The position numbers were made by a program, and so were the translations under genes. This document shows, one piece after another, positions 15,836 through 58,395 of a stretch of DNA of 64,000 nucleotides. Every line of letters begins with the position of its first letter. Within the stretch, counting starts at the first letter, position 1. Source of the stretch: Minisyncoccota bacterium (lineage in GTDB: Bacteria > Patescibacteriota > Microgenomatia > UBA1400 > UBA12028); the NCBI GenBank assembly GCA_003487265.1, contig DNEP01000001.1:24572-88571 (forward strand), read 5' to 3'. The notes below the pieces were generated by a model. The model was not told the DNA's origin. It ran no database searches and saw only the letters and a program-made list of their open reading frames with translations.

Positions 15836-16669
15836 TTATCTCTCAAACGGATTTTCTTTTCCCGCAGATTGTGATGCCTCAAGCGCCTGAAGAATCTCAT
15901 TCATATTCACGATTTCCTTCACCGATCGAAGCGTTTTTGCAAAATCGTTGAGTTCGGCACGCAATATTGGTAATGTGTCACCGGTTAACTCGGGAATTGT
16001 GTCCATATAAAATGCAGACACCGTGAGTTTTGAAAGAAAAACCTTTCCAGATTCCGAACTTTCTTTTTCGGTATTTACACCTTCGATTGTTTTTCCAATC
16101 GATGTTTTTGACGATTTTCCCGAGCCTAATTCAATCTTTTCAAGATCGAAAACAGGCGCGATTTTCTGCATTTCGCCGATGTATGTTTGCACTTGTTCTG
16201 CTGTTCCCATAAGTGTAATTTCAAGCGCGAGTTTTGAAACTTCCTCACGACGTTTTTGAGTATTGAGCGATGCTTCATCTGTTGATACCAATCCTGGGGA
16301 GACGGAGATTCCAACAAATCGAACTCCCGTTTGATCGGCGAGTTTTTGTAATGAGTACATACTAATGAGGAAAGGTTTCGACGATGGGAGAAGGGAGTGA
16401 ATCTGCGCGCGTAACTGTTGGTACTCTTCGGTATTAAATTGATCTAAAAATGCGATTCTCGATTGTAATGTGGAAAGATCAGACTGTTGTTTTTTAAGTT
16501 CAGATTGATACGAACGGAACAACTCGAAGCGGGGGAGCATCACTTTCCACACCAAAAGTCCCATCACCACCCAAGCCAATACCGAAAAAAGAAGATATCT
16601 GCGATCACGAAAATTGTTTGCTCGTAGTGCTGAAGTGGTTTTTGCTGAAGATGATGGAAGTATCGGCAT
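15836..16669 (-). CDS. pilO: Type IV pilus assembly protein PilO
   Basis: Single N-terminal TM helix followed by coiled-coil and a periplasmic domain. Last gene of the pilM-pilN-pilO run. Start set at the internal Met (MPILPSS) so it abuts the pilN stop; the ORF-track start at 16843 would overlap pilN by 170 nt. Confidence 0.6.
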   Translation of the reverse strand: MPILPSSSAKTTSALRANNFRDRRYLLFSVLAWVVMGLLVWKVMLPRFELFRSYQSELKKQQSDLSTLQSRIAFLDQFNTEEYQQLRAQIHSLLPSSKPFLISMYSLQKLADQTGVRFVGISVSPGLVSTDEASLNTQKRREEVSKLALEITLMGTAEQVQTYIGEMQKIAPVFDLEKIELGSGKSSKTSIGKTIEGVNTEKESSESGKVFLSKLTVSAFYMDTIPELTGDTLPILRAELNDFAKTLRSVKEIVNMNEILQALEASQSAGKENPFER

Positions 16670-16670
16670 G

Positions 16671-17249
16671 TTATTTTCCTTTTTTCTCGGTTGGAACGGA
16701 GTAGGAGAGTTGACCAGTAATGGTGTACATTCCATCGCCTTTTCGCGAAAAATTCTGCATTGATACCGTGTATTTTTTCTTATCAATCGAGTCTGCGCGC
16801 AATGCGCGAAATGTTTCGATAAACGCAAAAACATCGTTTGCATTGATTACGTACGATAGTGATCGCGACTCGTTTTTCAGGGTGAGATCGGTAAGTACAC
16901 TGCCTTGTTTCACCAACGACTGGAGAAACCGCACCGCGTCTTGTTTTGCAACGCGCTCTTGGTTCATCGAAAAAAGATACGTGACTTTTTGCGCGTAAAT
17001 CACATAATCAAGTTGAATCGCTCTCTTCGATTGCAGTGTTTTTTTGGCCACCTCGATTTGTTTTTTGGCGTTCTCGATTTTATTTTGTAAATACCACGAT
17101 CCTCCCATAACACCGATTAAGAGAACCATAAACATTCCCAAGCCAACCGAGGTAAAAAATGAAATCTGCTTATCTCTGCGCAACTGTCTTTCAAGTTCGC
17201 GTTCGCGGTCACGTAAAAAATTGATGGAAGGAGTTACGGGCATATTCAT
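16671..17249 (-). CDS. pilN: Type IV pilus assembly protein PilN
   Basis: Short cytoplasmic N-terminus with INFLRDRERE and a single TM helix, as in PilN. Its start overlaps the pilM stop by 4 nt. Confidence 0.65.
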   Translation of the reverse strand: MNMPVTPSINFLRDRERELERQLRRDKQISFFTSVGLGMFMVLLIGVMGGSWYLQNKIENAKKQIEVAKKTLQSKRAIQLDYVIYAQKVTYLFSMNQERVAKQDAVRFLQSLVKQGSVLTDLTLKNESRSLSYVINANDVFAFIETFRALRADSIDKKKYTVSMQNFSRKGDGMYTITGQLSYSVPTEKKGK

Positions 17250-18295
17250 AGAACACCCTCAAGCGCATAGCCAAAACTCACAACGTACGATGGAATATCC
17301 GCGGGAAGCACCTTGACTGTTGGCGCAAAAACCATTTGTGATGGAATGAAGGGAGCAATTTCAACTTGGAACTGCTCTGCGAGAATCGCCGAGATCGAGT
17401 TCATCGCCGATCCACCTCCTGCTACCAGTATCTTTTGCACAGTTGCACCCTTAAATGATCCAGAAAAATACTGCATCGCTTTTTGCATTTCGTTCATGAA
17501 CGGTTGAAAAATTGGCATCATTGCTTGTTTAATTTTCCCTTCGAGCTGCGTCTCATCCATGCCGTAGGTTCGTTTGTATTCCTCGGCTTGTGAAGCGGAA
17601 AGCCCCAAACCACGTTCAATGGCGCGACTGAGCACCGCACCACCGTTGGGATACGAATACGTGAACGCGAGTTCGTGGTTGTGCACCACAACCATATCGG
17701 TGGTGGTTGCGCCGATGTTCACGATCAGCGTGGTGGGGAGTGTGTGATCCAAGTTCGCGAGTCGAAAAATCGACATCGTCTGCGTGCCTAATGAGCGCAC
17801 ATCAAGACCAGCTTGATAAAATAAATCAACATAACTCGTGACAAATGTCTTTGAAACGCCAATCATGAGCACACGCATTTTTTGCGAGGGATCGTTTTTT
17901 GGTGGGCGATACAACACTTGATATTCCAACTGAAGATCGTCTGCGGGAATGGGAATGTACTGTTCTGCCTGCCATCCAACCGCCGAGGAAAGTTCTTGAT
18001 CGGAAAGATGGGGCATTTCTACGATTTTTGTTGAAACAAACGCCTCGGGAAGTCCAACATGCACTTCTCCAGAAGGAATAGTTTGATCCTTTATCATGTG
18101 CTTGAGAAGTTCGACAAATCGATCGCGGTCGGCTTGTTGCGATGGAATCACCAGTCCAAGCGGATTGGCGATCATTGATGCGCGCTCAACGATGAACGCA
18201 TTTTTTTGCTGTCGCAACGCAACCGTTTTTATCGAGTATGTTCCGACATCTAATCCAATATGTAATCCCATGGGCAGTCCTTTACCTATCATCAT
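17246..18295 (-). CDS. pilM: Type IV pilus assembly ATPase-like protein PilM (actin-like fold)
   Basis: GLDVGTYSIKTVAL start and an actin/FtsA-like phosphate motif series (IGATTTDMVVV, LVAGGGSAM). Position upstream of pilN-pilO. Confidence 0.75.
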   Translation of the reverse strand: MMIGKGLPMGLHIGLDVGTYSIKTVALRQQKNAFIVERASMIANPLGLVIPSQQADRDRFVELLKHMIKDQTIPSGEVHVGLPEAFVSTKIVEMPHLSDQELSSAVGWQAEQYIPIPADDLQLEYQVLYRPPKNDPSQKMRVLMIGVSKTFVTSYVDLFYQAGLDVRSLGTQTMSIFRLANLDHTLPTTLIVNIGATTTDMVVVHNHELAFTYSYPNGGAVLSRAIERGLGLSASQAEEYKRTYGMDETQLEGKIKQAMMPIFQPFMNEMQKAMQYFSGSFKGATVQKILVAGGGSAMNSISAILAEQFQVEIAPFIPSQMVFAPTVKVLPADIPSYVVSFGYALEGVL

Positions 18296-18304
18296 AGCAA
18301 ACGT

Positions 18305-19168
18305 TTACGGTGTTGTCTTTACAATATCGGTCCCAGAAATCATAGAAAATTCAAGAAAAGAGAGGGGCATGGGGAGCGATCGAATCACTTGAATCGCTTT
18401 TTTTTCATCCCCGTCGGTGTTTTCCGCCTTCGCAACAACGCTCCATTGAACGGCATCCGATCCTAACGCCGTGCCGGAAACTCGAATGTTTGTATCGGAA
18501 GAAAGCGCACGAACAGAAAACACACGTTCTTCACTTGTCGATGAATTTCCTGGAGAAAATTCTAATCTGCGTGTAAAGGCGGAGTTTCCATCTGCGCTTA
18601 TATCTTCACCCGATGCTTCAAAACAGGTGGGATCGGACGGATCTTCGGGATCACAGTCTCTTCCGTTATAGGCTGCCGTTTTCGACCAATACGTATTCGA
18701 TGTCGCAGAATAAAAGTAGCGAGTAATCAACAATGATGCTTGTTGCGCACCACCTTCGGGTGGATTTTTCTGATTCCATTCGAGAACAAGCGTTCCCGCA
18801 CTATCCACAGGAACCGCCAGAGGAATCATTACCGACTCACCTTCGAGAAGTGAAAAATCGAGTTTTTCGAGTTGTGGAGTAATCGCGTACTCTCCGTATC
18901 CATCCACACTTCCCGAAACCGCGTCGTTTGAAAATGAATCCGCCTGAGACAGCGCCTCTTCCAGCACGGTCTCTGCCGATTGAAAGGTTGAGGAACTGTT
19001 CTGTTCCTGACGTGAAAGTGCAATATCTTGCACCGATCGATTCGCAACCGACACGCCCACCCCTAATACAACCGCCATCACAAGCATCGCGATAAGCGCG
19101 ACTTGCCCCGACTGTTTTGCGTATTGCCGTTCGGTATACAAATGAAAATCTGGAAAAAAATGTTTCAT
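18305..19168 (-). CDS. PilX-like minor pilin / pilus-associated membrane protein
   Basis: N-terminus QSGQVALIAMLVMAVVLGVGVSVANRS resembles the PilX_N helix. It is followed by a secreted-type domain with conserved Cys pairs, and lies between the pseudopilin genes and pilM. Confidence 0.45.
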   Translation of the reverse strand: MKHFFPDFHLYTERQYAKQSGQVALIAMLVMAVVLGVGVSVANRSVQDIALSRQEQNSSSTFQSAETVLEEALSQADSFSNDAVSGSVDGYGEYAITPQLEKLDFSLLEGESVMIPLAVPVDSAGTLVLEWNQKNPPEGGAQQASLLITRYFYSATSNTYWSKTAAYNGRDCDPEDPSDPTCFEASGEDISADGNSAFTRRLEFSPGNSSTSEERVFSVRALSSDTNIRVSGTALGSDAVQWSVVAKAENTDGDEKKAIQVIRSLPMPLSFLEFSMISGTDIVKTTP

Positions 19169-19190
19169 ATGTTCATTGTACGCAATGTTC

Positions 19191-19706
19191 TCATTTTCTC
19201 AAAGTCACGGTTGTCTGAAATACTTGCGTGGCGGGAACAGCAACCGAACGTTCTTGCTTAATTTGTAGTCCAAAAGAAATGCTCACCGAACTGTACGTTT
19301 CTCCAACCCCCGTTGAGCAAGAAAACGTGAGTGGATATGCATCGGGAACGAGCACAAACGCATCCGTAAAATAGGAAACCGAACTGCCGGAAGCGCTCGC
19401 GATTCTATCACTATCTGTTTGAAGCGTTGTTTTTCCAAAATCAGCATTAATCAACTCAAGATGATCTGATTCACACACAGAAATCCGCTGCGCGTTTCGC
19501 ACCATCGCCTCAAGGTGGGTGAGGGCAACGCTTCCCTGTTGTTTGAGATCGGTGCTAATCGAGATGTGCTCATCACTTCGAAGCGTTGTGAGAAACACGC
19601 CAACAATCGCAGATGAAATCAGCACAAAAACCGAAATCACGATGATCAGCTCGATGAGCGTAAAACCACGTTGACTTGATTTTGATTTGTGATTAATCTT
19701 CATCAA
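19191..19706 (-). CDS. Prepilin-type (pseudopilin/minor pilin) protein
   Basis: Prepilin N-terminal motif QRGFTLIELIIVISVFVL with Glu at +5. Confidence 0.7.
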   Translation of the reverse strand: MMKINHKSKSSQRGFTLIELIIVISVFVLISSAIVGVFLTTLRSDEHISISTDLKQQGSVALTHLEAMVRNAQRISVCESDHLELINADFGKTTLQTDSDRIASASGSSVSYFTDAFVLVPDAYPLTFSCSTGVGETYSSVSISFGLQIKQERSVAVPATQVFQTTVTLRK

Positions 19707-20218
19707 TCAATCCTTTTTTTGTAGTTCATCTCTAAAGATGAGGATAGTTCGGCATCGGATCCATCATCTAACCGTGCTTGCGATACTGCGGTAACCTCAT
19801 CGGCTGTGATGGTAATCACGACCGTTCGCAAAAAAGAGGTTGTGGGAATAAAATCTGTACATCCGTCAACTGTCGTTAAAAAGGTTTCGGTATTCAAGGT
19901 TGTTCCGTCCACAACCGTTGGAAGCGCGGGGAGCGTGGGAACACACCACACGCTGTGTGAATCGGCGGTTGCGGTTTGAAGAGAGGCAACAAACTCCGCC
20001 CAACCTACTTTTTCCCGATACGCGTGCAACCACTCAAGCGGTTGTTTTGCATAGTACACGAGATGTTGATGTTGTTCGCTTGATCGTTGTGAGCGAACGA
20101 CAAGCGTAATCGTTGACATCACCGCCACCAGCGCAATTGATACAATGGCAAGCGCGACCAAAACCTCGATCAGTGATGACCCTCGTTGTTTTTTTGCTGA
20201 AATAAAAAAAGCGTTCAT
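19703..20218 (-). CDS. Prepilin-type minor pilin
   Basis: QRGSSLIEVLVALAIVSIALV prepilin methylation/cleavage motif. 4-nt overlap with the downstream gene. Confidence 0.65.
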   Translation of the reverse strand: MNAFFISAKKQRGSSLIEVLVALAIVSIALVAVMSTITLVVRSQRSSEQHQHLVYYAKQPLEWLHAYREKVGWAEFVASLQTATADSHSVWCVPTLPALPTVVDGTTLNTETFLTTVDGCTDFIPTTSFLRTVVITITADEVTAVSQARLDDGSDAELSSSLEMNYKKRID

Positions 20219-20220
20219 TG

Positions 20221-20733
20221 TTATGGGATCTCCACAAGGTTCGCATCCGAAATACTACCCGAATCATCAATGGTAATGGCGATATGTCGATCGGTTGCTC
20301 CGATTTTTCGCAAATGCAAGGTTGTTGTTTCCATCGAAGAAGCGCCGATCCCCCGCACAGGCGTCGCGAATCGAATGATTGCAGGTTCTTCAAATTCATA
20401 TCCCGCGGGAAACGGGATGTACGTAATTGAAGGGGTACTTGGATCACAGATCGCGTTAATCTGATATTGATAGGAATAGAGATCAAATAACACTTGATAT
20501 CCTGTTAATGGACTCGTCGAACAATCGGCCGGTTTTTCCCCACTCAGCGCGCTTTTTTGAACCTTTCGCAAGGTTGTCACCGCTTCTTTTCCCGCGTGTA
20601 ACAACGACTGCGTTTCATTGTATTGATTGAATCCCGCCACAGAAACTCCAAGAAATAACATCATAATTGCAACGGAGACAAGCAACTCGATCAAGGTAAA
20701 ACCATGATGAACAGAAACAGAGGCAGTGTGCAT
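20221..20733 (-). CDS. Prepilin-type minor pilin
   Basis: HHGFTLIELLVSVAIMMLFL prepilin motif. Confidence 0.7.
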   Translation of the reverse strand: MHTASVSVHHGFTLIELLVSVAIMMLFLGVSVAGFNQYNETQSLLHAGKEAVTTLRKVQKSALSGEKPADCSTSPLTGYQVLFDLYSYQYQINAICDPSTPSITYIPFPAGYEFEEPAIIRFATPVRGIGASSMETTTLHLRKIGATDRHIAITIDDSGSISDANLVEIP

Positions 20734-20766
20734 AGAAAAAGTATACCGTATTTTGTGAGGAGAAGG

Positions 20767-21207
20767 TTAGGGGTTTTCAAAACAACACGAAAACGGCTTC
20801 GCCGTACCCGAACAAGTCATTCCATCCTGAGTTGATGTTTCAAAATTCGCACAGAGCGAGTACGATTTATTGTCTGCACTCGGTGTGTAACTGTACACGT
20901 ACGGTGCGTCGTTTTGCGGATCGTACATTGAGGGGACAGAGAGGTAACTCGCACCGTTTAAAGTTGTAATCATTCCATCCCAAGTTTCATCGCTGGGATA
21001 GGTCAACAGTGGAGGTTGAGAGCGATACATTTCCAGCGCTGTGCGCACTTGACTCAAATCGGCTTTACGCTTTCCGTCGCGGGCTTTTGCGGATGACGCG
21101 GTGTAACTCACAATACCAATCGTCGCCAACAACGCGAGAATTGTCGTTGCGACAAGAAGTTCTATCATGGTAAATCCAAAAGATGATTTATTTTGAAAAC
21201 GTAACAT
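20767..21207 (-). CDS. Type IV pilin / GspG-like pseudopilin
   Basis: SFGFTMIELLVATTILALLATIG followed by ARDGKRKADL, a GspG/PulG-like signature. Confidence 0.75.
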   Translation of the reverse strand: MLRFQNKSSFGFTMIELLVATTILALLATIGIVSYTASSAKARDGKRKADLSQVRTALEMYRSQPPLLTYPSDETWDGMITTLNGASYLSVPSMYDPQNDAPYVYSYTPSADNKSYSLCANFETSTQDGMTCSGTAKPFSCCFENP

Positions 21208-21228
21208 ATCGCATGCTTTCTCGTATTG

Positions 21229-21642
21229 TTATTGCTGTTCCTTCACACAAAAATATGGACTTCCCGCATCCGAACTAAAGGTACACGTCGTATTTTCACT
21301 GTTTCCTTTAAGATTCTCCAACGGAGCGCAAATACAGTAGGTGGATGTACTACAGTTATTCGTGTAGTATATCCACTCCGATTGATTTTTTGGATCAACG
21401 GGAACTCCTGCGGGGAGATAATCGGTTGTGGGGACACAGTCTGCGGGATAGTTTCCGGCATTCGCCTTTTGCTGTTCAAGTGCAGATTGCCACGCTCGCA
21501 TATCGGCTTTTCGTTTTCCGTCGCGGGCGGTTTTTTGACCGTTGGTGTAGCTCACCGCACTAACGCTGAGCAAAATTCCAATGATTGAAATCACAACGAG
21601 TAACTCAAGCAAGGTAAATCCGAACGACTTGATGTGTTTCAT
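21229..21642 (-). CDS. Type IV pilin / GspG-like pseudopilin (paralog of the 20767-21207 gene)
   Basis: MKHIKSFGFTLLELLVVISIIGILLSV followed by ARDGKRKADM. Start moved to the internal Met (ATG at 21642) because the ORF-track N-terminal extension is non-pilin sequence. Confidence 0.75.
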   Translation of the reverse strand: MKHIKSFGFTLLELLVVISIIGILLSVSAVSYTNGQKTARDGKRKADMRAWQSALEQQKANAGNYPADCVPTTDYLPAGVPVDPKNQSEWIYYTNNCSTSTYCICAPLENLKGNSENTTCTFSSDAGSPYFCVKEQQ

Positions 21643-21724
21643 AGTACTAGTATGGGTATCGGGCAAGAGCCTGTCAAGCGAGAAATCGATATTCGGTGTT
21701 GTCGAACCAGCGTTTGCCATATGA

Positions 21725-24700
21725 TTACGGTGCGATCTCGAACCAATCGTACGTTGATTTTTTCAAGGAATCAGGAGCGTTCAACACCAGATCGGGTCGG
21801 ACAAAAAACACTTCCGCGGGAGAGTCGTTGTTTCCAATTCCACTCAAGTTTCGCTCAAGATTAAATCCTTGCCATCCCACAAAAGTTCCCGCACCAATGA
21901 ACTGCGTGTCACCCGAGCCGTCGGTATTGGTACCTGTTGAGATTGTTCCATCGGCAACATACACCCCTTGAACCATTGCCTCTGCAAGCGCGGTTTCTGC
22001 GTATGCTTCCATTTCAAGTTCGTCGGCACTCAACGGCTCCGCAAGTCCCAATGATGCATCAATGGAGATATCTCCACTCGCAACAATCATTAAGAAACCA
22101 CCCAGCTCTACCGTGATTTGGTTTTCGATCACAACATCTCCATCGACAACAAGAATGGCACGCATGGATGATGGAATGGTGAGATCTCCGTTTACGACAA
22201 TTGTATCTGAAGCGAAAAACGCATCCGCGTCTGCGTTGGCGTACGGTTGGGTAAACAAAGATGTATCCGAAAGTTCATGCGGAAGCGCTTGGTTTGTGAA
22301 ATCGTCTACGGGAACTGCGGGAAGATTGAGCATCTGTTTGAGATACGCATATCCCGTTTTTTCTGCACTTGTGGATAGGGTCGCATATTTTTCTGCATCT
22401 TTTTCATCTTCAGCACGAATCGAACCGTTCCCCAACGAAATATCGGAAAGCATCTCGCCGATTAGCGGGAATCCCGAGGTGTTGTCCCGTCCATACGTGG
22501 GATTTGGATTTCCATGGGCGTATTTTTGCATAAGCGTATACGAAGTGGGTGTGCGTAGGGGAATTGCTTGACCAATCGATCCATTTCCTCCTCGTGAGGG
22601 AAGCGCGCCCACCATCACGCTCCCACCAAAAACTTGAAACCACGCATCGGAAACACTCAAAACCGTATAATCTTGCGTGATTACATCGTCTGAAACAACC
22701 GAAATCGTTGGAGTCGTTTGAGGACAGACGAGTCCGTAGCCGGGCAAACCAAATATCGTGCCGTTTGTGATGCTAGGGCGGTATGTGGTGGCTTGATCTA
22801 ATCCTAAGGTTGGTACTTGCACACTATATCCCCCAAGCACATCTGCGGAATCGTTATATGATCCAAAATCTGTTGAAGAATATGAAATAGACGGGAGCGG
22901 ATCGGTAATTGGAGTACCCGGTGTACAGGTTGATGATTCGGTAATGGTTCCCTGAATTGTTGCGACACAAGAATCATTTTCTATTTGTGGGTGCTCGGTT
23001 GAACAAAAATGCGTTCCCGTACGCGTCCCTCCATCACAGACATCCGGCTCCCAATCGATGGTATCGGAACAGTACACAGCGTTGTCGTTTTCGGAACACG
23101 ACACATACCCCACACTCTCACAATCAACTGTTCCTCCATAGGCTTCATATGAACAAAACGGATTCCCCGAACACAACGGCTGGGGATCGGCTTCGTCGGT
23201 GTGAACCGAACAATGAAAATAATAATCTTCAGAAGAAACGATAAGATCATCTATTGAAGCGGTGCACGATTCTCCTGCGGATGCAGAACATTCATCAAGC
23301 TTGTAGACCGTTTCTCCAAATGCGTTCACTTTAAGAATGGTGTTCGTTTCGGATGTTGGAGGCGCGAGAAGATCGTCTCCATCTCGTTGCTCAGCAAAAA
23401 TTCGCACTATTGCGTTATTCAGCGACCCCCCTGTTCCCGTTGCCGAAACGGAAACCAATTCGTTTTGATCGGTCCCCGATAAAGTCGAAACCGTAATTGA
23501 ACAAGTGGAGTTGTCAACTACGGGCGGAGGAGTCGTGGACTGTTGACACGGTTGATACTGTGAAGAAGGAATAATCGTCCATTCTGCAGGCCACGCATCG
23601 GTTGGATTTGCCCGATATCGAGAAAGCACCGTAAGATTTCCCTGGTAAGTTATTGATGCGTCACCAATCACATGCATTCCTTGGACAGGATAGGGGACTC
23701 CTCCGTGAATATGAAAGTGTTGATCGTCGAACATTGCCAGTTCCGTTTGTGGATCCTCTCCACCCAAAGAAAGTTTGTACACCCCAGAAATTCCCATTAA
23801 TGCATCGGGGTCTGCGGGCCACGGGTTGTACCAATCTCCCGCACCATACGCACCAAATGCAAAAGCCGCTTGCAAGTTCCCATCGCTCCCTGGTCCCGCG
23901 GGTTCACGCTGAATCTTGAATTGATAATACCCATCAACTGGTGGAACAAAATACCCAATGTATGATGTGAGCGTCCACCCTCGGCACTCATCCATCGCAA
24001 AATACGGAATAGTGCTTGAAATGGGTTGAAACGGAGCGCCTGCCGCCCATCTTGTGTCAACATACGCAGAATCAGGAAGATATTCGTACGCAAACCGCAT
24101 CCATCCCGATGCGCTACTCAAGCTTCGATACACGCGCAGACCCGAGGTTGGTTCACCCGTAGGAACCGATCCATCTGCATTACACGCTGATGCGATTGGA
24201 CCAGAAGTTGAACACGATGAGGGTGGGGGTGGCGTTTCTCCACCTTCACCGCCACCTGGGAGCGTTGAACCGGGGCAACACCCGAGGAGTTGCCAGCGTT
24301 CAAAAGGTTCACCTGGAACATAGCTTTGTTCATCCCGCAACACATCGCAGTCTGAATATCCGTGAACGGTGCAGTCGCCAACACAACTGCCATCGTACCC
24401 TGCATTGAATAGATTATCGGACTCTGGCACACATGGGCAGGTAGTTTCACCCTTAAGAATCGGATCGTAACAAAGATCATCCGCTTGAGAACACCACCCT
24501 TTGCATTGACCAATATTCCACATACGAGTGGCAGAGGAATAATACTCACCCGATCCGCGCAACGTGCAGTAATTTGTCCCATCTAAGGTGTACGCATTGC
24601 ACGTCGAACTCTGAGAAATCGTCGTTTCTGCACATGCTTGTCCTCCTTCAGCGACCCGACAAGAAGAGACCACGGAAATTCCAGTCGTCGCATCTTGAGG

Positions 24701-24793: not shown

Positions 24794-24841
24794 GCACTCT
24801 CATTATGCAATGAGATGGAGTGAAGCACAATATTTCATTCG

Positions 24842-25408: not shown

Positions 25409-25447
25409 TCAACTATAATATCACACAACTCATATCATTAAGTTCAG

Positions 25448-28120: not shown

Positions 28121-28132
28121 ACGTGTATTGTA

Positions 28133-28933
28133 TCACAAAAGACCAAAATACCACGAAAGAAGCGGTTCACCCCAAATCAAAGAGAGAACTGACCCAAGAA
28201 TCAAAAACGGGGCAAACGGTACAACCTGCCCAAACTTCTTTTTTCGCGCAACGAGCAGGGCAACCGCCACCACCGCCCCAATAATAAATGCGAGATACAC
28301 CGCCAAAATCGTCTGCGGAAACCCCAAAATCAAACCCAATGGAAACATAAACTTCACATCTCCAAGTCCCATCCCGCGCCCCTTCGTTATACGAACCAGC
28401 GCATAAAAAAGGAGAGAAAATCCGAACGCGGATGCAATCGCCATCCAATAGTCATATGGTTGGAAAATCCCCGCGATAAGGAGGGCGGAACGGTACATCA
28501 GCGCCAACACAGAAAGCACCACTACCAGCACATCAGGAATGACATATTTAAACAAATCGATGAAAAAAACCAAAATAAAAATAATCCCCACGACCAACCA
28601 AAAGGCCGGCTGAAGATAGGTAAACGGCGCGCGGGCGAGCTGGAAAAAGGTAAACCCAATCAAGTACCACCACACAAACATCACACCAGTAATCGCTTCG
28701 ATCAGCGGATAACTCGCATCGATGCGCTTGTGGCAGGTGCGACACCGCCCCCGAAGCGCCAAAAACGACAACAACGGAATGTTTTCATACCAAGCAAGTT
28801 GACGCTTACAATGATCGCAGTAGGACCGCCCATACACGAACGATTCTCCTCGAGTCATGCGATAGATCACCACATTCAGAAACGACCCAATTGCCGAACC
28901 AAACGCAAACAAAAACAGCATCATCACAATCAT
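28133..28933 (-). CDS. pilD: Prepilin peptidase (A24 family) PilD
   Basis: N-terminal tetra-Cys zinc motif (CDHCKRQ...CRTCHKRI) and about 8 TM helices with conserved Asp regions (ALMYRSALL...GLGDVKF). 4-nt overlap with the upstream gene. Confidence 0.85.
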   Translation of the reverse strand: MIVMMLFLFAFGSAIGSFLNVVIYRMTRGESFVYGRSYCDHCKRQLAWYENIPLLSFLALRGRCRTCHKRIDASYPLIEAITGVMFVWWYLIGFTFFQLARAPFTYLQPAFWLVVGIIFILVFFIDLFKYVIPDVLVVVLSVLALMYRSALLIAGIFQPYDYWMAIASAFGFSLLFYALVRITKGRGMGLGDVKFMFPLGLILGFPQTILAVYLAFIIGAVVAVALLVARKKKFGQVVPFAPFLILGSVLSLIWGEPLLSWYFGLL

Positions 28934-29613
28934 AGAAAGATGTTAATCCCAAACACGATTTCGATAATCTGGCCGATCCAATAGGAAAGGAAGAGGAGTA
29001 AGAACCCAACCACCGCCCAGGTGATGCGGTTTTTTCCCGCTTCTTGCGCCTTTTGGTCCGTCGCCCCGAGGAGCATCTCGAAACCTCCCCAGACGATCAT
29101 TACGAACAGGGTAAATCCCGCAAATGCAAACAGGAATGGAAACGAGTAGGCGATGATTTGACCAAGCGTGAGGGTAGAGGGATCCACTCCAACATTTTGC
29201 GAACCAATTTTGTTGAGCTGGATCGCGTTGTTGATTGTGTCTCGCATTTTCGCGGGGTTGAGGGGGAGAGGGGGTGGGTTTGCTCCAGTGGGAATTAATG
29301 CTGGAGTCAACACGCAATCTTCAAAACAAATTTGACCATCAAAACTTGGTGCGCAACACGCAACTTCATCGGGTTCATAATCTGCATGACATGTCGTCAA
29401 TTGGGGTGACACGCATAATCCACACTCAATCGCACAAGAAACGATCTTATCATTTGAAACAGATGAAGAATATGAATATAGTTCTCCAAAATCAGTCTTT
29501 TGATAACACTCTGTCCCTTCTTTACAAGAATATACAGGTGCAGCCTGCGCAACGCCTCCCCACACAAAAACACTTGTGAAAAACAAAGTGAGAAAAAGAA
29601 AGGTTTTTTTCAT
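28930..29613 (-). CDS. Cys-rich secreted protein with a C-terminal two-helix membrane hairpin (VirB2/TrbC-pilin-like architecture)
   Basis: Signal peptide MKKTFLFLTLFFTSVFVWGGVAQA and a Cys-rich extracellular domain with about 14 Cys. The C-terminus has hydrophobic helix 1 (YSFPFLFAFAGFTLFVMIVWGGFEMLLGA), a short charged loop (TDQKAQEAGKNR) and hydrophobic helix 2 (ITWAVVGFLLLFLSYWIGQIIEIVFGI). Confidence 0.4.
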   Translation of the reverse strand: MKKTFLFLTLFFTSVFVWGGVAQAAPVYSCKEGTECYQKTDFGELYSYSSSVSNDKIVSCAIECGLCVSPQLTTCHADYEPDEVACCAPSFDGQICFEDCVLTPALIPTGANPPPLPLNPAKMRDTINNAIQLNKIGSQNVGVDPSTLTLGQIIAYSFPFLFAFAGFTLFVMIVWGGFEMLLGATDQKAQEAGKNRITWAVVGFLLLFLSYWIGQIIEIVFGINIFL

Positions 29614-29614
29614 C

Positions 29615-30502
29615 TTAAAATCCTGGTAACTTCAAAATGTCTACGCCGATTGTTCGTAAAATGACCATCGAAAAAATGATGAATAAAAGACCACTTATCG
29701 CCGCGGTGATGTTGTTCTTTGCTTCATCAACCTTTTTTGGTTCTCCTTGACTTGTGGTAAGTTGAAAAGCTGCAGCAAGGATGGTGAGCAACACCACACC
29801 ACCGCCAATACTCAGACTTAAGCGCACAATCGACACAATGATTCCCTCAGGGGAACTCGGGATACACCCTATCGCGGTCCAGATGCCTTTCTCAAAAGTG
29901 TTCCCAGCACATGTCGTATTTAATGGATCCCCAGTCACACATTGACAACACACCGCGCGATCATCGGCATTTGAAATTTGTTTACAAGGATTAAAAGTAC
30001 TAGAAAAAATTGCAGGGTACTGACAAATTTTTTGGAAATTATATTCAACACATTTTTGATCAGGATCAATACAATCATCTTTCTTTCCATCATTGTCTAT
30101 ATCGGTACATGCTTGACCTAAATATCCTTCATAACTCGAGAGAGATGAATTTTCTAAAGAAGGATAACATATATGTTTTTCAATTCTTGATGGGGGACTA
30201 TTAGGAATTGGAATATACGCACTTAAAACAACAGAGCACCCTTCGATTGTTAAACATGAACTTGTATTCAAATTTTCCCGAGGGTTATCGCACTGAAAAA
30301 GTTTTGAACTACATTGATCTAAACCCGAACCAGCAGGGTTAACCGATTCTACAGAATACCCAGAATCTACGTGATCAGTACAACCATCAAAAGTTGTTGC
30401 TGCAGCCCGAACTTCGGCTCTAGGCAAAAAAGCCAAAAAGACAAAAAGAAAAACCACAAATACGGCCAAAAATCCCGATAATACTCGTTGTTTTTCCTTC
30501 AC
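29615..30502 (-). CDS. Cys-rich secreted protein, paralog of the 28930-29613 gene, with the same C-terminal two-helix hairpin
   Basis: Same architecture: signal-like VLSGFLAVFVVFLFVFLAFL, a Cys-rich domain, and a C-terminal helix / short charged loop (TTSQGEPKKVDEAKNN) / helix. Probable GTG start at 30502, immediately preceded by TATAAT; the ORF-track ATG at 30610 is an alternative. Confidence 0.4.
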   Translation of the reverse strand: MKEKQRVLSGFLAVFVVFLFVFLAFLPRAEVRAAATTFDGCTDHVDSGYSVESVNPAGSGLDQCSSKLFQCDNPRENLNTSSCLTIEGCSVVLSAYIPIPNSPPSRIEKHICYPSLENSSLSSYEGYLGQACTDIDNDGKKDDCIDPDQKCVEYNFQKICQYPAIFSSTFNPCKQISNADDRAVCCQCVTGDPLNTTCAGNTFEKGIWTAIGCIPSSPEGIIVSIVRLSLSIGGGVVLLTILAAAFQLTTSQGEPKKVDEAKNNITAAISGLLFIIFSMVILRTIGVDILKLPGF

Positions 30503-30656
30503 GTCTTCAATTATACACACTCCTCGTGGTGTTGTGCAGTGCGAAAATGCAAAACCAACGTGGGCTTTCAGTTTCAATATCACGCATCCAAGAACGGCCT
30601 CTAAACCCAAAGACCGCCCCTTTCGGGGCGGTCTGCGTTTTCAACATAAGCAGGTT

Positions 30657-31322
30657 TTACGGAAGACAGAGGAGTTCGTTTACATAGACGTCTTCGATTC
30701 CATAGTTCCCATCACCATCTCCATTCGGACAAGCGATTTCTTTGATTCCCGTTTCGTATCCACTGTTTACACAGTTTCGAATTGCTTCTCGCTTGAATGC
30801 TCCAGAAGATGGCATGAAACATGCGTACATCGTTGCGTCGGAGCCCTCAGGTTTGTAGGCAAAAATCATGTAGTTTTCCTGATTTTCCAATCGAGAAATA
30901 TATCCTGATTTCACCTCACCAGAAGTACTCAACAAATCAAGCCATGCCGATTCGGGGGAAAGACGACATGCGCCCTCACCAAAAAGTGCAGTCCCATACC
31001 CATCATCCATCGTTACTCCACAAAACTCACCAGCGGTGTCTGGCATAACAACCGTAGGTTGTTGATTATCTTCCGTAGGTGCGGTTTCTCCATCAGTCGA
31101 GATTTCATTCCACGGATACTTTTCCGCACTTGCGTAGTAGCGATCAACCGCATTAATCAACTGCGCGGCATCGGATCGCATACGCGTATCTCTTCCTTTA
31201 TTGATTTGTTCAATTGGGTTAATAGATGACAACACCGCCGTTGCGAGTGCGCCAATAACCGCGATCACGACGAGCAGTTCGATCATCGTAAAACCTGCGG
31301 TTTTCATAAATGACTTCAGCAT
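30657..31322 (-). CDS. pilA: Type IV major pilin PilA-like
   Basis: MLKSFMKTAGFTMIELLVVIAVIGALATAVL is a class III signal peptide with Gly at -1, Phe at +1 and Glu at +5. GGAG lies 7 nt upstream of this ATG. Directly downstream of pilC. Confidence 0.8.
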   Translation of the reverse strand: MLKSFMKTAGFTMIELLVVIAVIGALATAVLSSINPIEQINKGRDTRMRSDAAQLINAVDRYYASAEKYPWNEISTDGETAPTEDNQQPTVVMPDTAGEFCGVTMDDGYGTALFGEGACRLSPESAWLDLLSTSGEVKSGYISRLENQENYMIFAYKPEGSDATMYACFMPSSGAFKREAIRNCVNSGYETGIKEIACPNGDGDGNYGIEDVYVNELLCLP

Positions 31323-31381
31323 TTGTACTCCTTCACTTTTATTCAAACGACCTGATGGTCTGTATACGCATTGTGGTCATA

Positions 31382-32584
31382 TTAGAACTGACTTGTCAAG
31401 TTGTAGATCGGCATAATAATTGCAAGAATCAAGAACATCACGCCAACACCCAAGATCACCATAATAATTGGCTCAAGAAGAGTGGAAAGATTTTTCACCA
31501 TGTGTTCACTTTCGGACTCGAAATACGCCGAAACTTTTAACAGCACTTCGTCCAATTTTCCTGTTTCTTCACCAACCGCGCTCATTTGCGAAACGAGTGG
31601 CGGAAACAACTCGGATTTGGTAAGCGACTCGGAAAGCGGGACCCCTTTTTCGACATCGGTGGCCACTTCGTGCAACGCGTCGCGAAACAGCACATTGTCC
31701 ATCGACTCCGCAACAATTTGCAACGTCGAAAGCAAAGACACACCCGCCCCCAATAACAACGAGATTGTTCGAGTAAACTCGGTCATCATCGACAACACGC
31801 GAATTCTTCCAAAAACTGGAATCTTCAACAACAGTTTGTCGACGATAAACTCGCCGGTGGGGGTCGTTTTCCATAATCGAAAAATGTACACTCCACCAAT
31901 CACCGCTCCCACAAAAAAATACCAGTTTGTCGCCATAAAGTTTGAGGTGCTGATTAATATTTTTGTTGGCAACGGAAGCTCGGCATTAAATCCTTCGTAC
32001 ATTGTGGTGAGTTTTGGAATAACCATCACCATCATTAAAAACGCGACAATAATCATTCCCACAAACACAATGGCTGGATAAATCAGCGCGCCTTTTGTTT
32101 TCGCACGAAACTCGAACGATTTTTCCATGTTATCCGCAAGTCGGTGTAACACCTGATCCAACATTCCCGCGGCCTCACCCGAACGAACCAACGCAATATA
32201 CACTTTAGAAAAAATCCCTCGGTGTTTTTCGAGCGCGTCACCAAAAGAAGTTCCCCCTTCAACATCATGCGATAAACTCAAAACCACACGCTGCATCGCG
32301 GGACGCGATTGTTGAACCAAAATGCCAAACGATTCGGTGAGCGTAAGACCAGAAGTGATCATGGTAGAAAGTTGGCGCGTAAAGTTCACCAAGTCAGCGG
32401 CCTTCACGCGATCCATTGAAAGTGAAAGATCGTTAAGGATTGAGTTCGAGGATTGTGACAACGAAATAATGAACAAGTTCTTTTCTTTAAGCAGTGACGC
32501 TGCCTGATGTGGAGAGTTCGCCTCAATACGACCTTTAATCGTTTGCGCTTGATCTGTTCGAACCACGTATTTATAAAATGGCAT
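31382..32584 (-). CDS. pilC: Type IV pilus inner-membrane platform protein PilC (GspF family)
   Basis: 400 aa with two repeated GspF domains and TM segments (ALIYPAIVFVGMIIVAFLMMVMVIPKL, PIIMVILGVGVMFLILAIIMPIY). Confidence 0.8.
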   Translation of the reverse strand: MPFYKYVVRTDQAQTIKGRIEANSPHQAASLLKEKNLFIISLSQSSNSILNDLSLSMDRVKAADLVNFTRQLSTMITSGLTLTESFGILVQQSRPAMQRVVLSLSHDVEGGTSFGDALEKHRGIFSKVYIALVRSGEAAGMLDQVLHRLADNMEKSFEFRAKTKGALIYPAIVFVGMIIVAFLMMVMVIPKLTTMYEGFNAELPLPTKILISTSNFMATNWYFFVGAVIGGVYIFRLWKTTPTGEFIVDKLLLKIPVFGRIRVLSMMTEFTRTISLLLGAGVSLLSTLQIVAESMDNVLFRDALHEVATDVEKGVPLSESLTKSELFPPLVSQMSAVGEETGKLDEVLLKVSAYFESESEHMVKNLSTLLEPIIMVILGVGVMFLILAIIMPIYNLTSQF

Positions 32585-32593
32585 TTCGTCCTT

Positions 32594-33712
32594 TTATCCT
32601 TGATTTTCTTGCGTTGCAGATGTTGACACTGGATCCACACGAACCGGCTCCGTGGTCGACCGAACCGTTATCTTTTCGAGATCGTCTGGTCGGAGCGCGT
32701 ATTTTTCCGCCTCTTCATACGAAATCTTTCCCTCCATGACCAACTGAGCGAGAGAAGATTCAATGGTAATCATGCCATCACCCGCAGACGTTTGAATCAC
32801 GTTATCAAGTTGGAATGTTTTTCCATCGCGAATGAGATTGCGCACCGCGCCATTCGCCATCAACACCTCGACCGCAGCACACCGTTTTCCGTCTAACGAA
32901 GGCACGAGTCGCTGTGATAACACGGATTGAATTGACATCGCCAACTGCGATCGGATCTGCGCTTGTTGTGCCGCGGGGAACACATCAATAATACGATCAA
33001 TCGTTTGAGAAGCGCTGTTTGTATGCAACGTCGCGAACACAAGGTGTCCCGTCTCTGCTACGGTGAGCGCGGCCGCAATCGTTTCGTAATCGCGCATCTC
33101 TCCGACCAGTACCACGTCTGGGTCTTCGCGGAGCGCCGATCGAAGCGCGATCTCCCAAGAATGGGTATCCGCATGCAACTCACGTTGAGAAATAATCGAG
33201 TGGATCGGTTTGTGCACAAACTCAATTGGATCCTCAATTGTCAGAATGTGTTCACTGCGCGTTTTATTTATTTGATCAATAATAGCGGCAAGCGTTGAGG
33301 ATTTCCCGTGCCCGGTGGGACCGGTCACCAATACTAATCCTTGTTTCATCGTAGAAAATTGATTGCACACTTCTGGCATTCCCAAATCTTCAAGAGATTT
33401 GATTTTTGAGGGGATCAACCGGAGCGCCGCGGTCCATTCGCCCTGCGTGTGATACACATTGACACGAAATCGACCAAACTCGCCGAATTGATATCCAAAA
33501 TCAACTTCTTTGTTCACATTCAACAACTCGCGCTGTTCGGGGGCGAGAAGGGGAGTGATTGCTTCGCGAATCGTTTGCGAAGTTAATGGTTCGGTGTTGG
33601 GAATCGCACCAAGACGACCATGCACACGCAACATTGGGGGGATCCCCAAAAGCAAGTGCAGATCTGATGCATCTTGTTGAACAACTTGTGAAAGCATTGA
33701 TTGAATGTCCAT
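32594..33712 (-). CDS. pilT: Twitching-motility retraction ATPase PilT
   Basis: Walker A GPTGHGKSST, the Asp box TIEDPIEF, the PilT-type His box, and the AIRNLIREGK-like segment (AVRNLIRDGK). Confidence 0.85.
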   Translation of the reverse strand: MDIQSMLSQVVQQDASDLHLLLGIPPMLRVHGRLGAIPNTEPLTSQTIREAITPLLAPEQRELLNVNKEVDFGYQFGEFGRFRVNVYHTQGEWTAALRLIPSKIKSLEDLGMPEVCNQFSTMKQGLVLVTGPTGHGKSSTLAAIIDQINKTRSEHILTIEDPIEFVHKPIHSIISQRELHADTHSWEIALRSALREDPDVVLVGEMRDYETIAAALTVAETGHLVFATLHTNSASQTIDRIIDVFPAAQQAQIRSQLAMSIQSVLSQRLVPSLDGKRCAAVEVLMANGAVRNLIRDGKTFQLDNVIQTSAGDGMITIESSLAQLVMEGKISYEEAEKYALRPDDLEKITVRSTTEPVRVDPVSTSATQENQG

Positions 33713-33765
33713 CTTTCTCCTTTTATCTATTAATTTTTTATCTATTGATTCAGTATGGCGTTTTT

Positions 33766-35592
33766 TTATGTTTGTGCAACGCGCAGCACTTCCTCAATTG
33801 TTGTAATTCCTTCAAGCACCTTGAGATATCCATCTTGTTTCATTAAAATCATGCCATCGAGCACCGCTTGTTTTTCAATCTCGCTCGCGGGTTTTCGTTC
33901 GAGAATCAACTTCCCAATTTTTTCGGTCACCAACAGTACCTCATAAATTCCGACGCGCCCCTTGTACCCCGTACCGCCGCAAGTTTCACATCCTTTTCCC
34001 TTAAATATTTTGATCTCGGTTTTTTTATTTGTTTGCATCCATCCATCGAGGAGCTCACCAAGATATGATTTTATGTCATCTTTCACCGGCTGTTCTGGAT
34101 CGTACTGTTCTGCGCACACCGAACACACTCTGCGCAACACACGTTGCGCCATTACCACCGTCATCGAGCTGGCGAGCAAGAACGGCTCCGCTTCCATATC
34201 AAGAAGACGGGGAAGTGCGCCCGCGGCGGAGTTTGTGTGAAGTGTTGAAAAGACCAAGTGACCTGTGAGCGATGCTTGAATCGCAAGCTCCGCCGTTTCT
34301 TTATCGCGAATCTCTCCAACCATGATAATGTTTGGATCTTGTCGCAAAAACGCGCGCAAACCCGACGCAAAGGTGAGACCTGCTTGTGGGTTCACTTGGA
34401 CCTGATTAATTCCGAGCATCTGATACTCGACAGGATCTTCAAGTGTGACAATATTTAATTTCGGCGTGTTGATTTTATTCAGCAACGAGTACAGCGTTGT
34501 CGTCTTTCCTGAACCCGTGGGCCCCGTGACAAGAACGATTCCGTGCGGAACATGCGCGGCCGCTTCGAGATTCTTCAACGCACTCCCACGCAGTCCCAAT
34601 TCGGGAAGTGTGGGTACTCCACCCGTTTTCTTTAACAACCGCATCACGATTTTTTCACCATGAACGGTTGGAAGAGTAGAAACACGAAGGTCAACTTCTT
34701 CTTTGTCCATGCGAAACGTGAAACGGCCATCTTGCGGAATACGTTTTTCGTCAATCTTGAGATCGGATAAAATCTTGATGCGAGAAACCACCGCTTCGTG
34801 CACTGATTTTGGTAAGATGAGTTTTTCCTGCAAAATACCATCAATACGATAGCGCACGCGCGTTTTTTCCTCAAGCGGTTCGATATGCACATCCGATGCT
34901 CGCGCCTTCATCGCAAAGGTCACAACCGTTTCCACAATTTTCGCGATTGGAGCCTCACGAATGACATTCGCAAGCGATTTTGCATCAAAGGTTCGAAGCT
35001 TTACTTGTTCATCCGAGTTTGAGGTGTCCTTGATCGCAGCGGAAACCTCCGCCGACAAACTTTGGGCGTATCGTTCGGCAATTGCCTGCTCAATATCGGA
35101 AAGGGTGGAGTAGTGCGCGGTAACACGCATTCCCGTTTTTTTCTCGATGAAATCAATCGCACCCAAATCGAGTGGATTCACCATCGCGAGTTCGAGCGTA
35201 CGCGCTTCCTGATCGATGCTAAATGGAATCAAACGATACCGACGCGCCAAACCTTCGGGAATCTGCGAAAGCGCCTCGGGGGAACTTCCCACCGCCAACA
35301 CATCGATGTAAGGAACGGTATAGAATTCCGATCTCGCCTTTGCCAAGGTGACTTCATCAACAATCTTTTTTTGTTCAATAATCGAGTCAATCGGCTCACC
35401 CGTATTGACGTGCATTAAACTCACTTGATCAAACTGCGCTTGAGAAATGGATTGTTGCTTGAGCAAAACATCAAGAACGGTTCCGCTTTGAATCGTGGAT
35501 GCAACTTGCACACCTTGACTCACTTGCGGTGGTATTTGTGATTGCGTTTGTGGTTGTGTTTGCGCCGAAACATCGCCTTGGGCAGGTGTCAT
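33766..35592 (-). CDS. pilB: Type IV pilus assembly ATPase PilB (GspE family)
   Basis: N-terminal GspII_E-like domain, Walker A GPTGSGKTTT, the Asp box TLEDPVEY, and a tetra-Cys zinc motif (CSVCAEQY...CETCGGTGYKGRVGIYEVL). Confidence 0.85.
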   Translation of the reverse strand: MTPAQGDVSAQTQPQTQSQIPPQVSQGVQVASTIQSGTVLDVLLKQQSISQAQFDQVSLMHVNTGEPIDSIIEQKKIVDEVTLAKARSEFYTVPYIDVLAVGSSPEALSQIPEGLARRYRLIPFSIDQEARTLELAMVNPLDLGAIDFIEKKTGMRVTAHYSTLSDIEQAIAERYAQSLSAEVSAAIKDTSNSDEQVKLRTFDAKSLANVIREAPIAKIVETVVTFAMKARASDVHIEPLEEKTRVRYRIDGILQEKLILPKSVHEAVVSRIKILSDLKIDEKRIPQDGRFTFRMDKEEVDLRVSTLPTVHGEKIVMRLLKKTGGVPTLPELGLRGSALKNLEAAAHVPHGIVLVTGPTGSGKTTTLYSLLNKINTPKLNIVTLEDPVEYQMLGINQVQVNPQAGLTFASGLRAFLRQDPNIIMVGEIRDKETAELAIQASLTGHLVFSTLHTNSAAGALPRLLDMEAEPFLLASSMTVVMAQRVLRRVCSVCAEQYDPEQPVKDDIKSYLGELLDGWMQTNKKTEIKIFKGKGCETCGGTGYKGRVGIYEVLLVTEKIGKLILERKPASEIEKQAVLDGMILMKQDGYLKVLEGITTIEEVLRVAQT

Positions 35593-35617
35593 AGAATCAT
35601 AGTATCATACATGAACC

Positions 35618-36378: not shown

Positions 36379-38415
<2,037 letters not shown>

Positions 38416-38426
38416 AAAGGAAGAGA

Positions 38427-38909: not shown

Positions 38910-38944
38910 TGTTAACACAGTATACGCAATTTATAGGAGGGCCC

Positions 38945-39583: not shown

Positions 39584-39607
39584 TCAAAACAGTAAAAAAA
39601 GAAACAT

Positions 39608-58278: not shown

Positions 58279-58362
58279 GCCGGGGTGCTGAAATGGTAGA
58301 CAGGCTAGTCTCAAAAACTGGTGAGCTTTACGCTCATGAGGGTTCAAGTCCCTCCCTCGGCA
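58279..58362 (+). tRNA. tRNA-Leu (anticodon CAA)
   Basis: GCCGGGGTG...AATGGTAGA...CTAGT-CTCAAAA-ACTGG...long variable arm TGAGCTTTACGCTCA...GAGGGTTCAAGTCCCTC-CCTCGGC-A. Aligns closely with a bacterial tRNA-Leu cloverleaf with anticodon loop CUCAAAA. No CCA is encoded. Confidence 0.85.
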
Positions 58363-58395
58363 CAGAAAAGACGCATCAATACTATGTACAATAAA

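Follow-up and report, generated by a model that had tools for sequence, protein, structure and literature searches.

A secretin-less type IV pilus locus with two additional gene modules in a Microgenomates-group bacterium

The stretch of 64,000 nucleotides (nt) analysed here, hereafter the window, belongs to a metagenome-assembled genome (MAG) of a Microgenomates-group organism of the Candidate Phyla Radiation (CPR, or Patescibacteria), and its minus strand carries a type IV pilus (T4P) locus of 19 consecutive co-directional open reading frames (ORFs) at positions 15836-35592, ~19.8 kb in all. We consider it likely that this locus, which includes two extra modules, specifies a retractile type IVa-like pilus without a secretin and is a counterpart of the T4P loci of Saccharibacteria. 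The machine is of an already known kind, the type IVa-like pilus (T4aP-like pilus) of CPR bacteria, and what is new are the two modules and an undescribed T4P-linked protein family. The first module is a pair of VirB2-like genes between pilA and pilD, and the second is a trio of genes for proteins of 890, 188 and 1022 amino acids (aa) between pilD and the minor pilin genes, the 1022-aa protein being the window's member of the new family; together they make up ~8.1 kb of the 19.8 kb. In such a machine PilB would extend the pilus and PilT would retract it, with PilC as the platform and PilM (with PilN and PilO) as the alignment complex, while PilD would process six prepilins, PilA among them as the major subunit.

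Most of the core components were recognized directly by profile searches (Table 1). PilB contained a Walker A motif (GPTGSGKT) and a tetracysteine motif and was 62-65% identical to its orthologues in three related loci (L007, L008 and L009). Its MshEN domain covered residues 92-180 (window 35053-35319), a domain that can bind cyclic di-GMP in other bacteria. PilC had three transmembrane (TM)-like segments, and PilD, with CxxC...CxxC and GxGD motifs, had 6,865 homologues at E<=1e-10. The window PilO sequence by itself gave weak matches to GspM (3.1e-4, NCBIfam) and T2SSM (0.018); 17 of the 19 PilO orthologues matched Pfam PilO (PF04350; best 2.6e-10), and the orthologue profile matched M. xanthus PilO (3jc8) at 6.7e-4, with a TM helix found at residue 25 of the window protein. 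The candidate pilN overlaps pilM by 4 nt, and its product had a TM helix at residue 27 and an N-terminal I-N-F-L motif that was invariant among the orthologues save that of locus L028, whose INLL matches the known PilM-binding motif. The original prediction had described 19 tightly spaced minus-strand genes in the order found here, with all core T4P parts and no secretin, as fits a monoderm or CPR-like envelope, and on these points it was borne out. The ORF list agreed with it once the overlap of pilO was corrected at its start; PilB, PilT, PilC, PilD and PilM passed profile tests, PilO did so through its orthologue group, and PilN is a candidate by position, topology and motif; and no profile search reassigned PilM, PilN, PilO, PilC or PilD to an unrelated family. 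A Secretin domain (PilQ/GspD) was absent from all of the larger window ORFs that were scanned, and CPR bacteria have been reported to be without PilQ (PMC6744442, PMC7143001).

The N_methyl motif was observed in six prepilins (1e-07 to 2e-05), and class III G↓F(T/S)x(I/L)E signal motifs were read from their sequences. PilA has a short leader, six cysteines and a C-terminal C-L-P, and was 37-49% identical to the gene product at the same position in L007-L009. The subtype labels given to the small pilins (two GspG, and one each GspH, PilV/GspI and GspJ/ComGF) represent weak NCBIfam similarities. The PilX/GspK-like protein, encoded directly upstream of pilM in the window and in its relatives, had the N-terminus ...SGQVALIAMLV, one TM helix and no glutamate at position 5 (Glu5, E5). 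A missing Glu5 is a mark of the GspK/PilX tip subunit in both type II secretion systems (T2SS) and T4P. Judged from their sequences, the GspH-, GspI- and GspJ-like minor pilins together with this E5-less protein resemble a priming or tip complex.

A collinear, secretin-less T4P encoded at a single locus is standard for this group, and beyond the extra modules the rest of the locus is ordinary. L007, L008 and partly L009 share the block pilB-pilT-pilC-pilA-pilD-(0 or 1 gene)-pilins-pilX-like-pilM-N-O, even though the PilD identity of these relatives to the window is only ~55%, and all four have common flanks, with gyrB and a divergent holB on one side and S16/KH-rnc-nusB-recG-tyrS on the other. 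The core block measures 11.2-12.4 kb in the relatives versus 19.8 kb in the window. More than 30 other Patescibacteria loci carry all components within 20 kb, and co-localised T4P genes without pilQ have been published for CPR generally (PMC6744442) and for a complete Microgenomates genome (PMC7143001), so that the earlier suggestion that one contiguous locus is unusual had to be given up for this group. Known examples of the CPR single-locus, pilQ-less T4P include Microgenomates genome Ch65 (PMC7143001), CPR-wide families (PMC6744442), T4P-1 of Nanosynbacter lyticus TM7x (PMC11623550) and T4P1 of Southlakia epibionticum (PMC10633639). Like these loci, the window encodes PilB, PilT, PilC, PilD, PilM, PilO and a candidate PilN, along with a major pilin, some five other pilins and a large protein of the PilX type that has no canonical prepilin signal, with no secretin at the locus. 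It is, however, ~8 kb longer, carries the two inserted modules, and is without the 'postD' gene described below. In Saccharibacteria, T4P loci of the same gene content have been associated with real pili, twitching and host binding, and were found to be essential (PMC11623550, PMC10633639).

The flank on the pilB side was compact. The divergent starts of pilB and holB (DNA polymerase III delta') are only 25 nt apart (window 35593-35617), too close for promoters that lie outside coding sequence, and this arrangement recurs in L007, L008 and L009. Further out, a 160-aa protein and an inorganic pyrophosphatase are encoded between gyrB and gyrA (window 36436-42430). The relatives keep gyrB and the pyrophosphatase gene, with gyrA next in L008 and L009.

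The junction between pilD and the minor pilin genes is where the layouts part. It contains no gene in L008 and a single gene of ~300 aa (postD) in 32 loci, L007 and L009 among them; in the window the 890/188/1022-aa genes occupy the place of postD. The postD gene lies directly after pilD in these 32 related T4P loci (L007 10807-11712, L009 10895-11809, and 30 more) and encodes a Cys-rich protein of ~300-345 aa that has a TM helix at its N-terminus and contains the motifs GYGF.CC...DCP.SCY..C and FGDG...H.Y.C. A profile built from the 32 genes matched nothing in any window frame, and the postD gene of L007 and L009, considered as a possible relative of the 1022-aa protein, proved unrelated on comparison.

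The 1022-aa protein is a member of a large family. An exhaustive HMMER search gave at least 1,124 cluster representatives at E<=1e-3, with clusters formed at 50% identity. Family matches covered essentially the last ~310-340 residues, and among the matches listed this domain was located at or near the C-terminus of proteins of 106-1603 aa. The N-termini of the family are hypervariable and Cys-rich, while the C-terminal domain is conserved. A word-index search with the 1022-aa protein gave nothing but a 95%-identical fragment, and for the N-terminal ~400 residues no homologue was found apart from this fragment, which comes from a variant contig. An AlphaFold2 (AF2) model of the C-terminal domain, computed from the family alignment, was a beta-helix with a pLDDT of 80-97 over ~200 residues, and 16 of the 28 aligned family members matched DUF7305 (PF23981) at E<=0.01 (best 4.2e-07). 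No second member of the family was found in the window.

To see where these genes reside we used 78 family loci that were retrieved from GTDB species representatives with a degenerate C-domain pattern, blind to T4P genes. The loci were mostly from Patescibacteria, with a few from Chloroflexi. Core T4P genes were observed within 10 kb in 38 of the 78 loci, as compared with a rough estimate of ~4% for a gene placed at random in a genome of ~0.8 Mb. The coupling to a single minor pilin was tight: in 39 of 92 family genes the gene directly next, on the same strand, was the orthologue of the window's GspJ-like pilin, at a median gap of 2 nt. Nine more family genes stood directly before another family gene (which, where examined, had that pilin after it), and three before other pilins. 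Upstream, a small protein with an N-terminal TM helix directly preceded the family gene in 37 of 76 loci, and a large protein preceded that in 28 of 76. The exact order of the window recurs in L020, where the genes for a large protein and a small TM protein precede the family gene and two pilin genes come after it. In L028, which keeps the flanks of the window, the family gene immediately precedes the PilX-like gene and pilMNO. The family gene thus takes several different positions inside the T4P loci of independent genomes.

We think the chances just short of even that the 1022-aa protein is a tip adhesin that works by the logic of PilY1, with no homology to it. The protein would be exported by the Sec pathway and would then dock on the minor-pilin tip through its C-terminal beta-helix, and its hypervariable, disulfide-rich N-terminal part, possibly lectin-like, would be displayed as a host- or surface-binding adhesin. 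The putative 890-aa lipoprotein and the 188-aa protein may be its fast-evolving partners. PilY1 of the Pseudomonas and Myxococcus T4aP, which acts with FimU-PilVWX (PMC7541494, PMC5979040), shares with the 1022-aa protein its nature as a large non-pilin encoded with the core minor pilins, a conserved C-terminal and a variable N-terminal part, and a proposed place on a GspH/I/J/K-like tip complex in mediating adhesion. The two differ in that PilY1 has a C-terminal beta-propeller, as opposed to a beta-helix that is distantly DUF7305-like, with no relationship of sequence or fold; in addition, the N-terminus of the 1022-aa protein is disulfide-rich and its family is only about half T4P-linked. 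No match to the PilY1 family was found at E<=0.01 for the 1022-aa protein or for the 28 aligned family C-domains. A second comparison is offered by ComZ, the tip pilin of the Thermus thermophilus competence pilus, which has a beta-solenoid insertion (PDB 6qvi) and was among the best structural neighbours of the C-domain, at a non-significant E of 0.18 and probability of 0.66. Both would place a beta-solenoid module at a T4P tip, that of the 1022-aa protein being predicted. However, ComZ is itself a pilin, whereas the 1022-aa protein is without a pilin N-terminus, has a Sec signal peptide, and by its C-domain profile has no sequence match to any PDB chain.

Several observations weigh against a tip adhesin. 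The window protein scored 17.5-18.4 bits against a DUF7305 cut-off of 27, making it a distant relative and not a member. The Foldseek neighbours of the C-domain model (ice-binding-type beta-helices and ComZ) were all weak (E >= 0.07), and the matches to lectin-like domains, GLEYA (0.037) and PA14 (0.13), were sub-threshold and covered ~19 residues (residues ~277-295). The export signal is of the Sec type and is not a prepilin leader. The trio is grouped by position and architecture, as no homologues of the 890- and 188-aa proteins were detectable. Roughly half of the genes in the family have no T4P genes nearby, among them those of the Chloroflexi and the closest C-domain relatives (L011, L013-L019, L021 and L022).

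Some of these observations also speak for the main alternative, in which the trio is a self-contained, pilus-independent surface adhesin or contact module and the junction merely tolerates insertions. We regard this as unlikely but as the most serious competitor. It would account for a junction that may hold nothing, postD or the trio, for the Sec signal peptide, and for a trio GC content at third codon positions (GC3) that is lower than in most core genes. In five of the closest C-domain relatives (L014-L017 and L022) a large protein, a small TM protein and the family gene stand together with no T4P genes within 10 kb, and Chloroflexi members likewise have no T4P neighbours. Such independence is difficult to reconcile, however, with the association in the unbiased sample of 78 loci, with the close coupling to one minor pilin, or with the varied positions of the family gene inside T4P loci. 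The pilus-linked adhesin is the reading that we prefer, and with somewhat less confidence than for the window protein itself we extend it to the family, which is mostly from Patescibacteria with some Chloroflexi: it may be the missing tip adhesin of CPR T4P, in which the beta-helix would dock a GspJ/PilW-like pilin, the N-terminus would set specificity, and the partner proteins would be dedicated accessory factors.

The two partner proteins gave little to searches. Neither matched a Pfam or NCBIfam family, and a word search of 5.8 billion proteins gave no homologue of the 890-aa protein. Among the genes upstream of family members in the 78 loci, phmmer and cluster profiles found no homologue of either protein (best match 11 bits, to the 188-aa protein), and the partner proteins of the five closest non-T4P loci had at most marginal similarity from one locus to another. 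Lgt is encoded in the window at 56932-57708. The Chloroflexi MAG members (L023, L038, L054 and L067) have 37-56 cysteines and no T4P genes nearby; in L067 the family gene is preceded by genes for a 738-aa protein and a 192-aa N-TM protein, as in the window.

We also considered whether the inserted genes were recently acquired. The GC3 of the trio was 0.35-0.42 versus 0.44-0.56 in most core genes, with pilA, the PilX-like gene and pilO overlapping the trio range, and since this is only modestly lower, foreign cargo from a recent transfer was rejected. The original description of the embedded genes as non-canonical cargo is apt for the VirB2-like pair, which is out of place, but less so for the 1022-aa protein, which belongs to a family T4P-linked in about half of the sampled genomes and is nearer to an accessory part. 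From its gene neighbourhood, the accompanying proposal that the large secreted proteins set binding specificity appears reasonable for the 1022-aa protein. There was no sign of a diversity-generating retroelement, with no repeat longer than 33 nt in window 15000-36000 and no reverse transcriptase domain in the window ORFs scanned. DNA identical to the window is present on public contigs from aquifer metagenomes; PilD-identical contigs numbered 23, and of six compared to the window five were 100% and one was 99.8% identical, so no strain-level hypervariability was found across these six.

A different reading of the machine is that of a mainly T2SS-like pseudopilus piston with the large Cys-rich proteins as its secreted substrates, which we judge improbable. 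Scores for two core proteins point that way and count against a T4P: PilB reached 589 bits on the GspE model and 574 on PilB, and PilC 344 bits on GspF and 326 on PilC, all under the equivalog cut-offs and those of PilB just under. The similarity of the small pilins to GspG, H, I and J and the weak GspM match of PilO point towards a piston as well, and T2SS substrates are often encoded beside their system. The failure of the Pfam PilN profile (PF05137) to match the window protein or any of 18 orthologues also weighs against the T4P assignment. A PilN profile gave only chance matches among PDB sequences, an AF2 single-sequence model had low confidence, and an hhalign comparison of the PilN and PilO groups was uninformative. 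Against a piston, however, PilT passes its curated cut-off and the T4aP-type PilM passes TIGR01175, the short-leader major pilin of ~210 aa is conserved, no outer membrane has to be crossed, and Saccharibacteria loci of this gene content are documented to make real pili and to serve in twitching and host binding (PMC11623550, PMC10633639). A type IVa-like pilus is thus the reading kept here.

The first module, which the original prediction called two Cys-rich hairpin proteins, retains that description and can now be named: both are VirB2-like proteins of the T4SS_pilin family (PF18895). The first was just below the family cut-off, with an NCBIfam match to Mbov_0395 pilin-like proteins at 1.4e-3 and TM-like segments at residues 256 and 299, and the second was above it, with a match to the Mbov_0395 family pilin-like conjugal transfer protein at 1.2e-07. 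Each has a signal peptide, a Cys-rich ectodomain (19 cysteines in the first, 10 in the second) and a C-terminal two-TM hairpin. VirB2-like pilin arrays have been described in Patescibacteria (bioRxiv 10.1101/2025.01.22.634366), one of them essential in S. epibionticum (PMC10633639), and the window pair has in common with these the C-terminal VirB2-type hairpin and the tandem arrangement; it differs in its large ectodomains, its fixed order, its location between pilA and pilD, and its lack of a nearby virB4. The larger window ORFs scanned contained no virB4, virB6 or virB3 domain. VirB2-like arrays are reported to be abundant in Microgenomates and frequently away from virB4, and in 813 of 1,948 CPR assemblies the VirB2-like genes were not near it (bioRxiv 10.1101/2025.01.22.634366).

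In a metagenome scan the ordered pair, the long type followed by the short type, was kept at no fewer than 15 loci, in no case within a T4P locus. There it typically has a ~580-aa protein on one side and, on the other, uppS with mevalonate-pathway genes. Of ~110 loci examined, only the window had the pair within a T4P locus; no VirB2-like gene was found in any other T4P locus examined, and the pilA-pilD gaps of L053 and L034 contain unrelated genes. We infer that a conserved pair was relocated into the pilA-pilD gap in this lineage. Arrays of 7-12 small VirB2-like genes were also observed near long/short pairs (L091 2555-10169; L102; L104 and L105 12438-15871; L107 14061-16145). That the pair is functionally joined to the T4P, for example as membrane anchors or assembly factors, instead of merely relocated, seems to us the least probable of the readings considered: it occupies the pilA-pilD gap, after the pilA terminator and with a 4-nt pilD overlap, such genes are not near virB4 in many of the published assemblies, and in L103 a pair sits ~3.7 kb from pilMNO, outside the T4P locus, but no other T4P locus examined needs it, and in relatives it occupies a conserved non-T4P site next to uppS.

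The locus had also been proposed to be a single super-operon, which is doubtful. Directly after pilA is a hairpin with a 10-bp stem of 8 GC pairs and a GAAA loop (AGACCGCCCC-GAAA-GGGGCGGTCT then TTGGGTTT), with a folding energy of -28.8 kcal/mol (z = -4.0 vs shuffles), and it was the strongest terminator-like element, within the 136-nt gap before the first VirB2-like gene. L007 and L008 have sequence-unrelated canonical terminator hairpins at the same position, and L009 has none. Because this strong hairpin stands at a position kept in two of the three relatives, a single uniform transcript is unlikely; by sequence, transcription appears to be attenuated or terminated after pilA. Such a hairpin would leave PilA in excess over the downstream genes. 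The VirB2-like pair is probably co-transcribed with pilD, because the second gene overlaps it by 4 nt and the pair lies downstream of the pilA terminator. Terminator-like sites were enriched (40 vs 22.7 +/- 4.7 in shuffles), and promoter-like sites were not (27 vs 28.1 +/- 6.4).

Coordinates and main profile results for the features are given in Table 1. Spacing across the locus was -4 to +53 nt when maximal ORFs were used, and three starts were then revised. The maximal pilO ORF (15836-16843) overlaps pilN by 173 nt, and comparison with the orthologues points to 16669 (277 aa) as most likely the true start, instead of 16843. For pilA and the first VirB2-like gene we adopted gene-caller calls on identical public contigs: the pilA start at 31307 gives 216 aa with the leader MKTAG↓FTMIE (maximal ORF to 31346), and the VirB2-like start at 30520 gives 301 aa.

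Table 1. Genes and other features of the T4P locus in the window, in order of transcription.
Feature	Length	Position	Strand	Basis
pilB, extension ATPase	608 aa	33766..35592	-	Pfam T2SSE 7.8e-132 and MshEN 1.9e-17
pilT, retraction ATPase	372 aa	32594..33712	-	TIGR01420 PilT/PilU 450 bits vs cut-off 319; Pfam T2SSE 8.6e-46
pilC, platform protein	400 aa	31382..32584	-	two T2SSF (PF00482) domains, 4.9e-63
pilA, major prepilin	216 aa	30657..31307	-	N_methyl 2e-05
terminator/attenuator hairpin directly 3' of pilA		30611..30634	-	stem and loop as given in the text
VirB2-like protein 1	301 aa (maximal ORF 331 aa, to 30610)	29615..30520	-	PF18895 T4SS_pilin 1.5e-05, 25.4 bits vs 26.6 cut-off (just below)
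VirB2-like protein 2	227 aa	28930..29613	-	PF18895 9.4e-08, 32.5 bits (above 26.6 cut-off)
pilD, prepilin peptidase / N-methyltransferase	266 aa	28133..28933	-	A24_N_bact (PF06750) 2.8e-33 and Peptidase_A24 (PF01478) 2.7e-13
acidic protein, possible lipobox LEAC (putative lipoprotein)	890 aa	25448..28120	-	
protein with single N-terminal TM helix (TM-like segment at residue 1)	188 aa	24842..25408	-	
secreted protein, 35 Cys	1022 aa	21725..24793	-	Sec signal peptide, unique N-terminal ~400 aa, conserved C-domain residues ~685-1022 (nt 21728-22741)
GspG-like prepilin	163 aa	21229..21720	-	N_methyl 2.1e-06; TIGR01710 9.1e-12 (under cut-off); orthologues in L007-L009
GspG-like prepilin	146 aa	20767..21207	-	N_methyl 1.9e-06; TIGR01710 2.1e-09; orthologues in relatives
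GspH-like minor prepilin	170 aa	20221..20733	-	N_methyl 7e-07; weak PpdA-type and GspH matches
PilV/GspI-like minor prepilin	171 aa	19703..20218	-	N_methyl 1e-07; TIGR02523 PilV 3.6e-07; GspI 1.3e-05
GspJ/PilW/ComGF-like minor prepilin	170 aa	19191..19703	-	N_methyl 1.4e-06; GspJ 8.1e-05; ComGF 5.7e-05
PilX/GspK-like pseudopilin without Glu5	287 aa	18305..19168	-	weak PilX_N 0.0088
pilM, actin-like alignment protein	349 aa	17246..18295	-	PF11104 PilM_2 7e-44; TIGR01175 152 bits vs cut-off 133
pilN candidate, bitopic	192 aa	16671..17249	-	position after pilM, topology, N-terminal motif
pilO	277 aa from ATG at 16669	15836..16669	-	orthologue group matches Pfam PilO

Other features were observed elsewhere in the window. 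A 1658-aa ORF at 1379-6355 (minus strand) had an N-terminal Peptidase_M48 domain (residues 97-177) as its sole domain match, a tyrosine recombinase is encoded at 43299-44231, and the gene at 58396-59526 (minus strand) for a Fic/DOC protein, winged-helix at its C-terminus, adjoins tRNA-Leu(CAA) at 58279-58363. GC skew was persistently negative over window 24000-64000 (cumulative -2.6), whatever the gene strand, and a strand compositional disparity has been reported in another Microgenomates genome (PMC7143001).

These results bear on how uncultivated CPR bacteria recognize a host and bind to it, and on what sets pilus specificity outside the Saccharibacteria. The T4P is the best-supported attachment organelle, being essential or host-binding in cultivated Saccharibacteria. 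If the 1022-aa family is a pilus-presented adhesin, its combination of a conserved anchor and a variable head could help to predict host range from metagenomes and would provide a concrete target for structure prediction and pull-downs. The junction between pilD and the minor pilin genes would then be a swap site for lineage-specific surface proteins.

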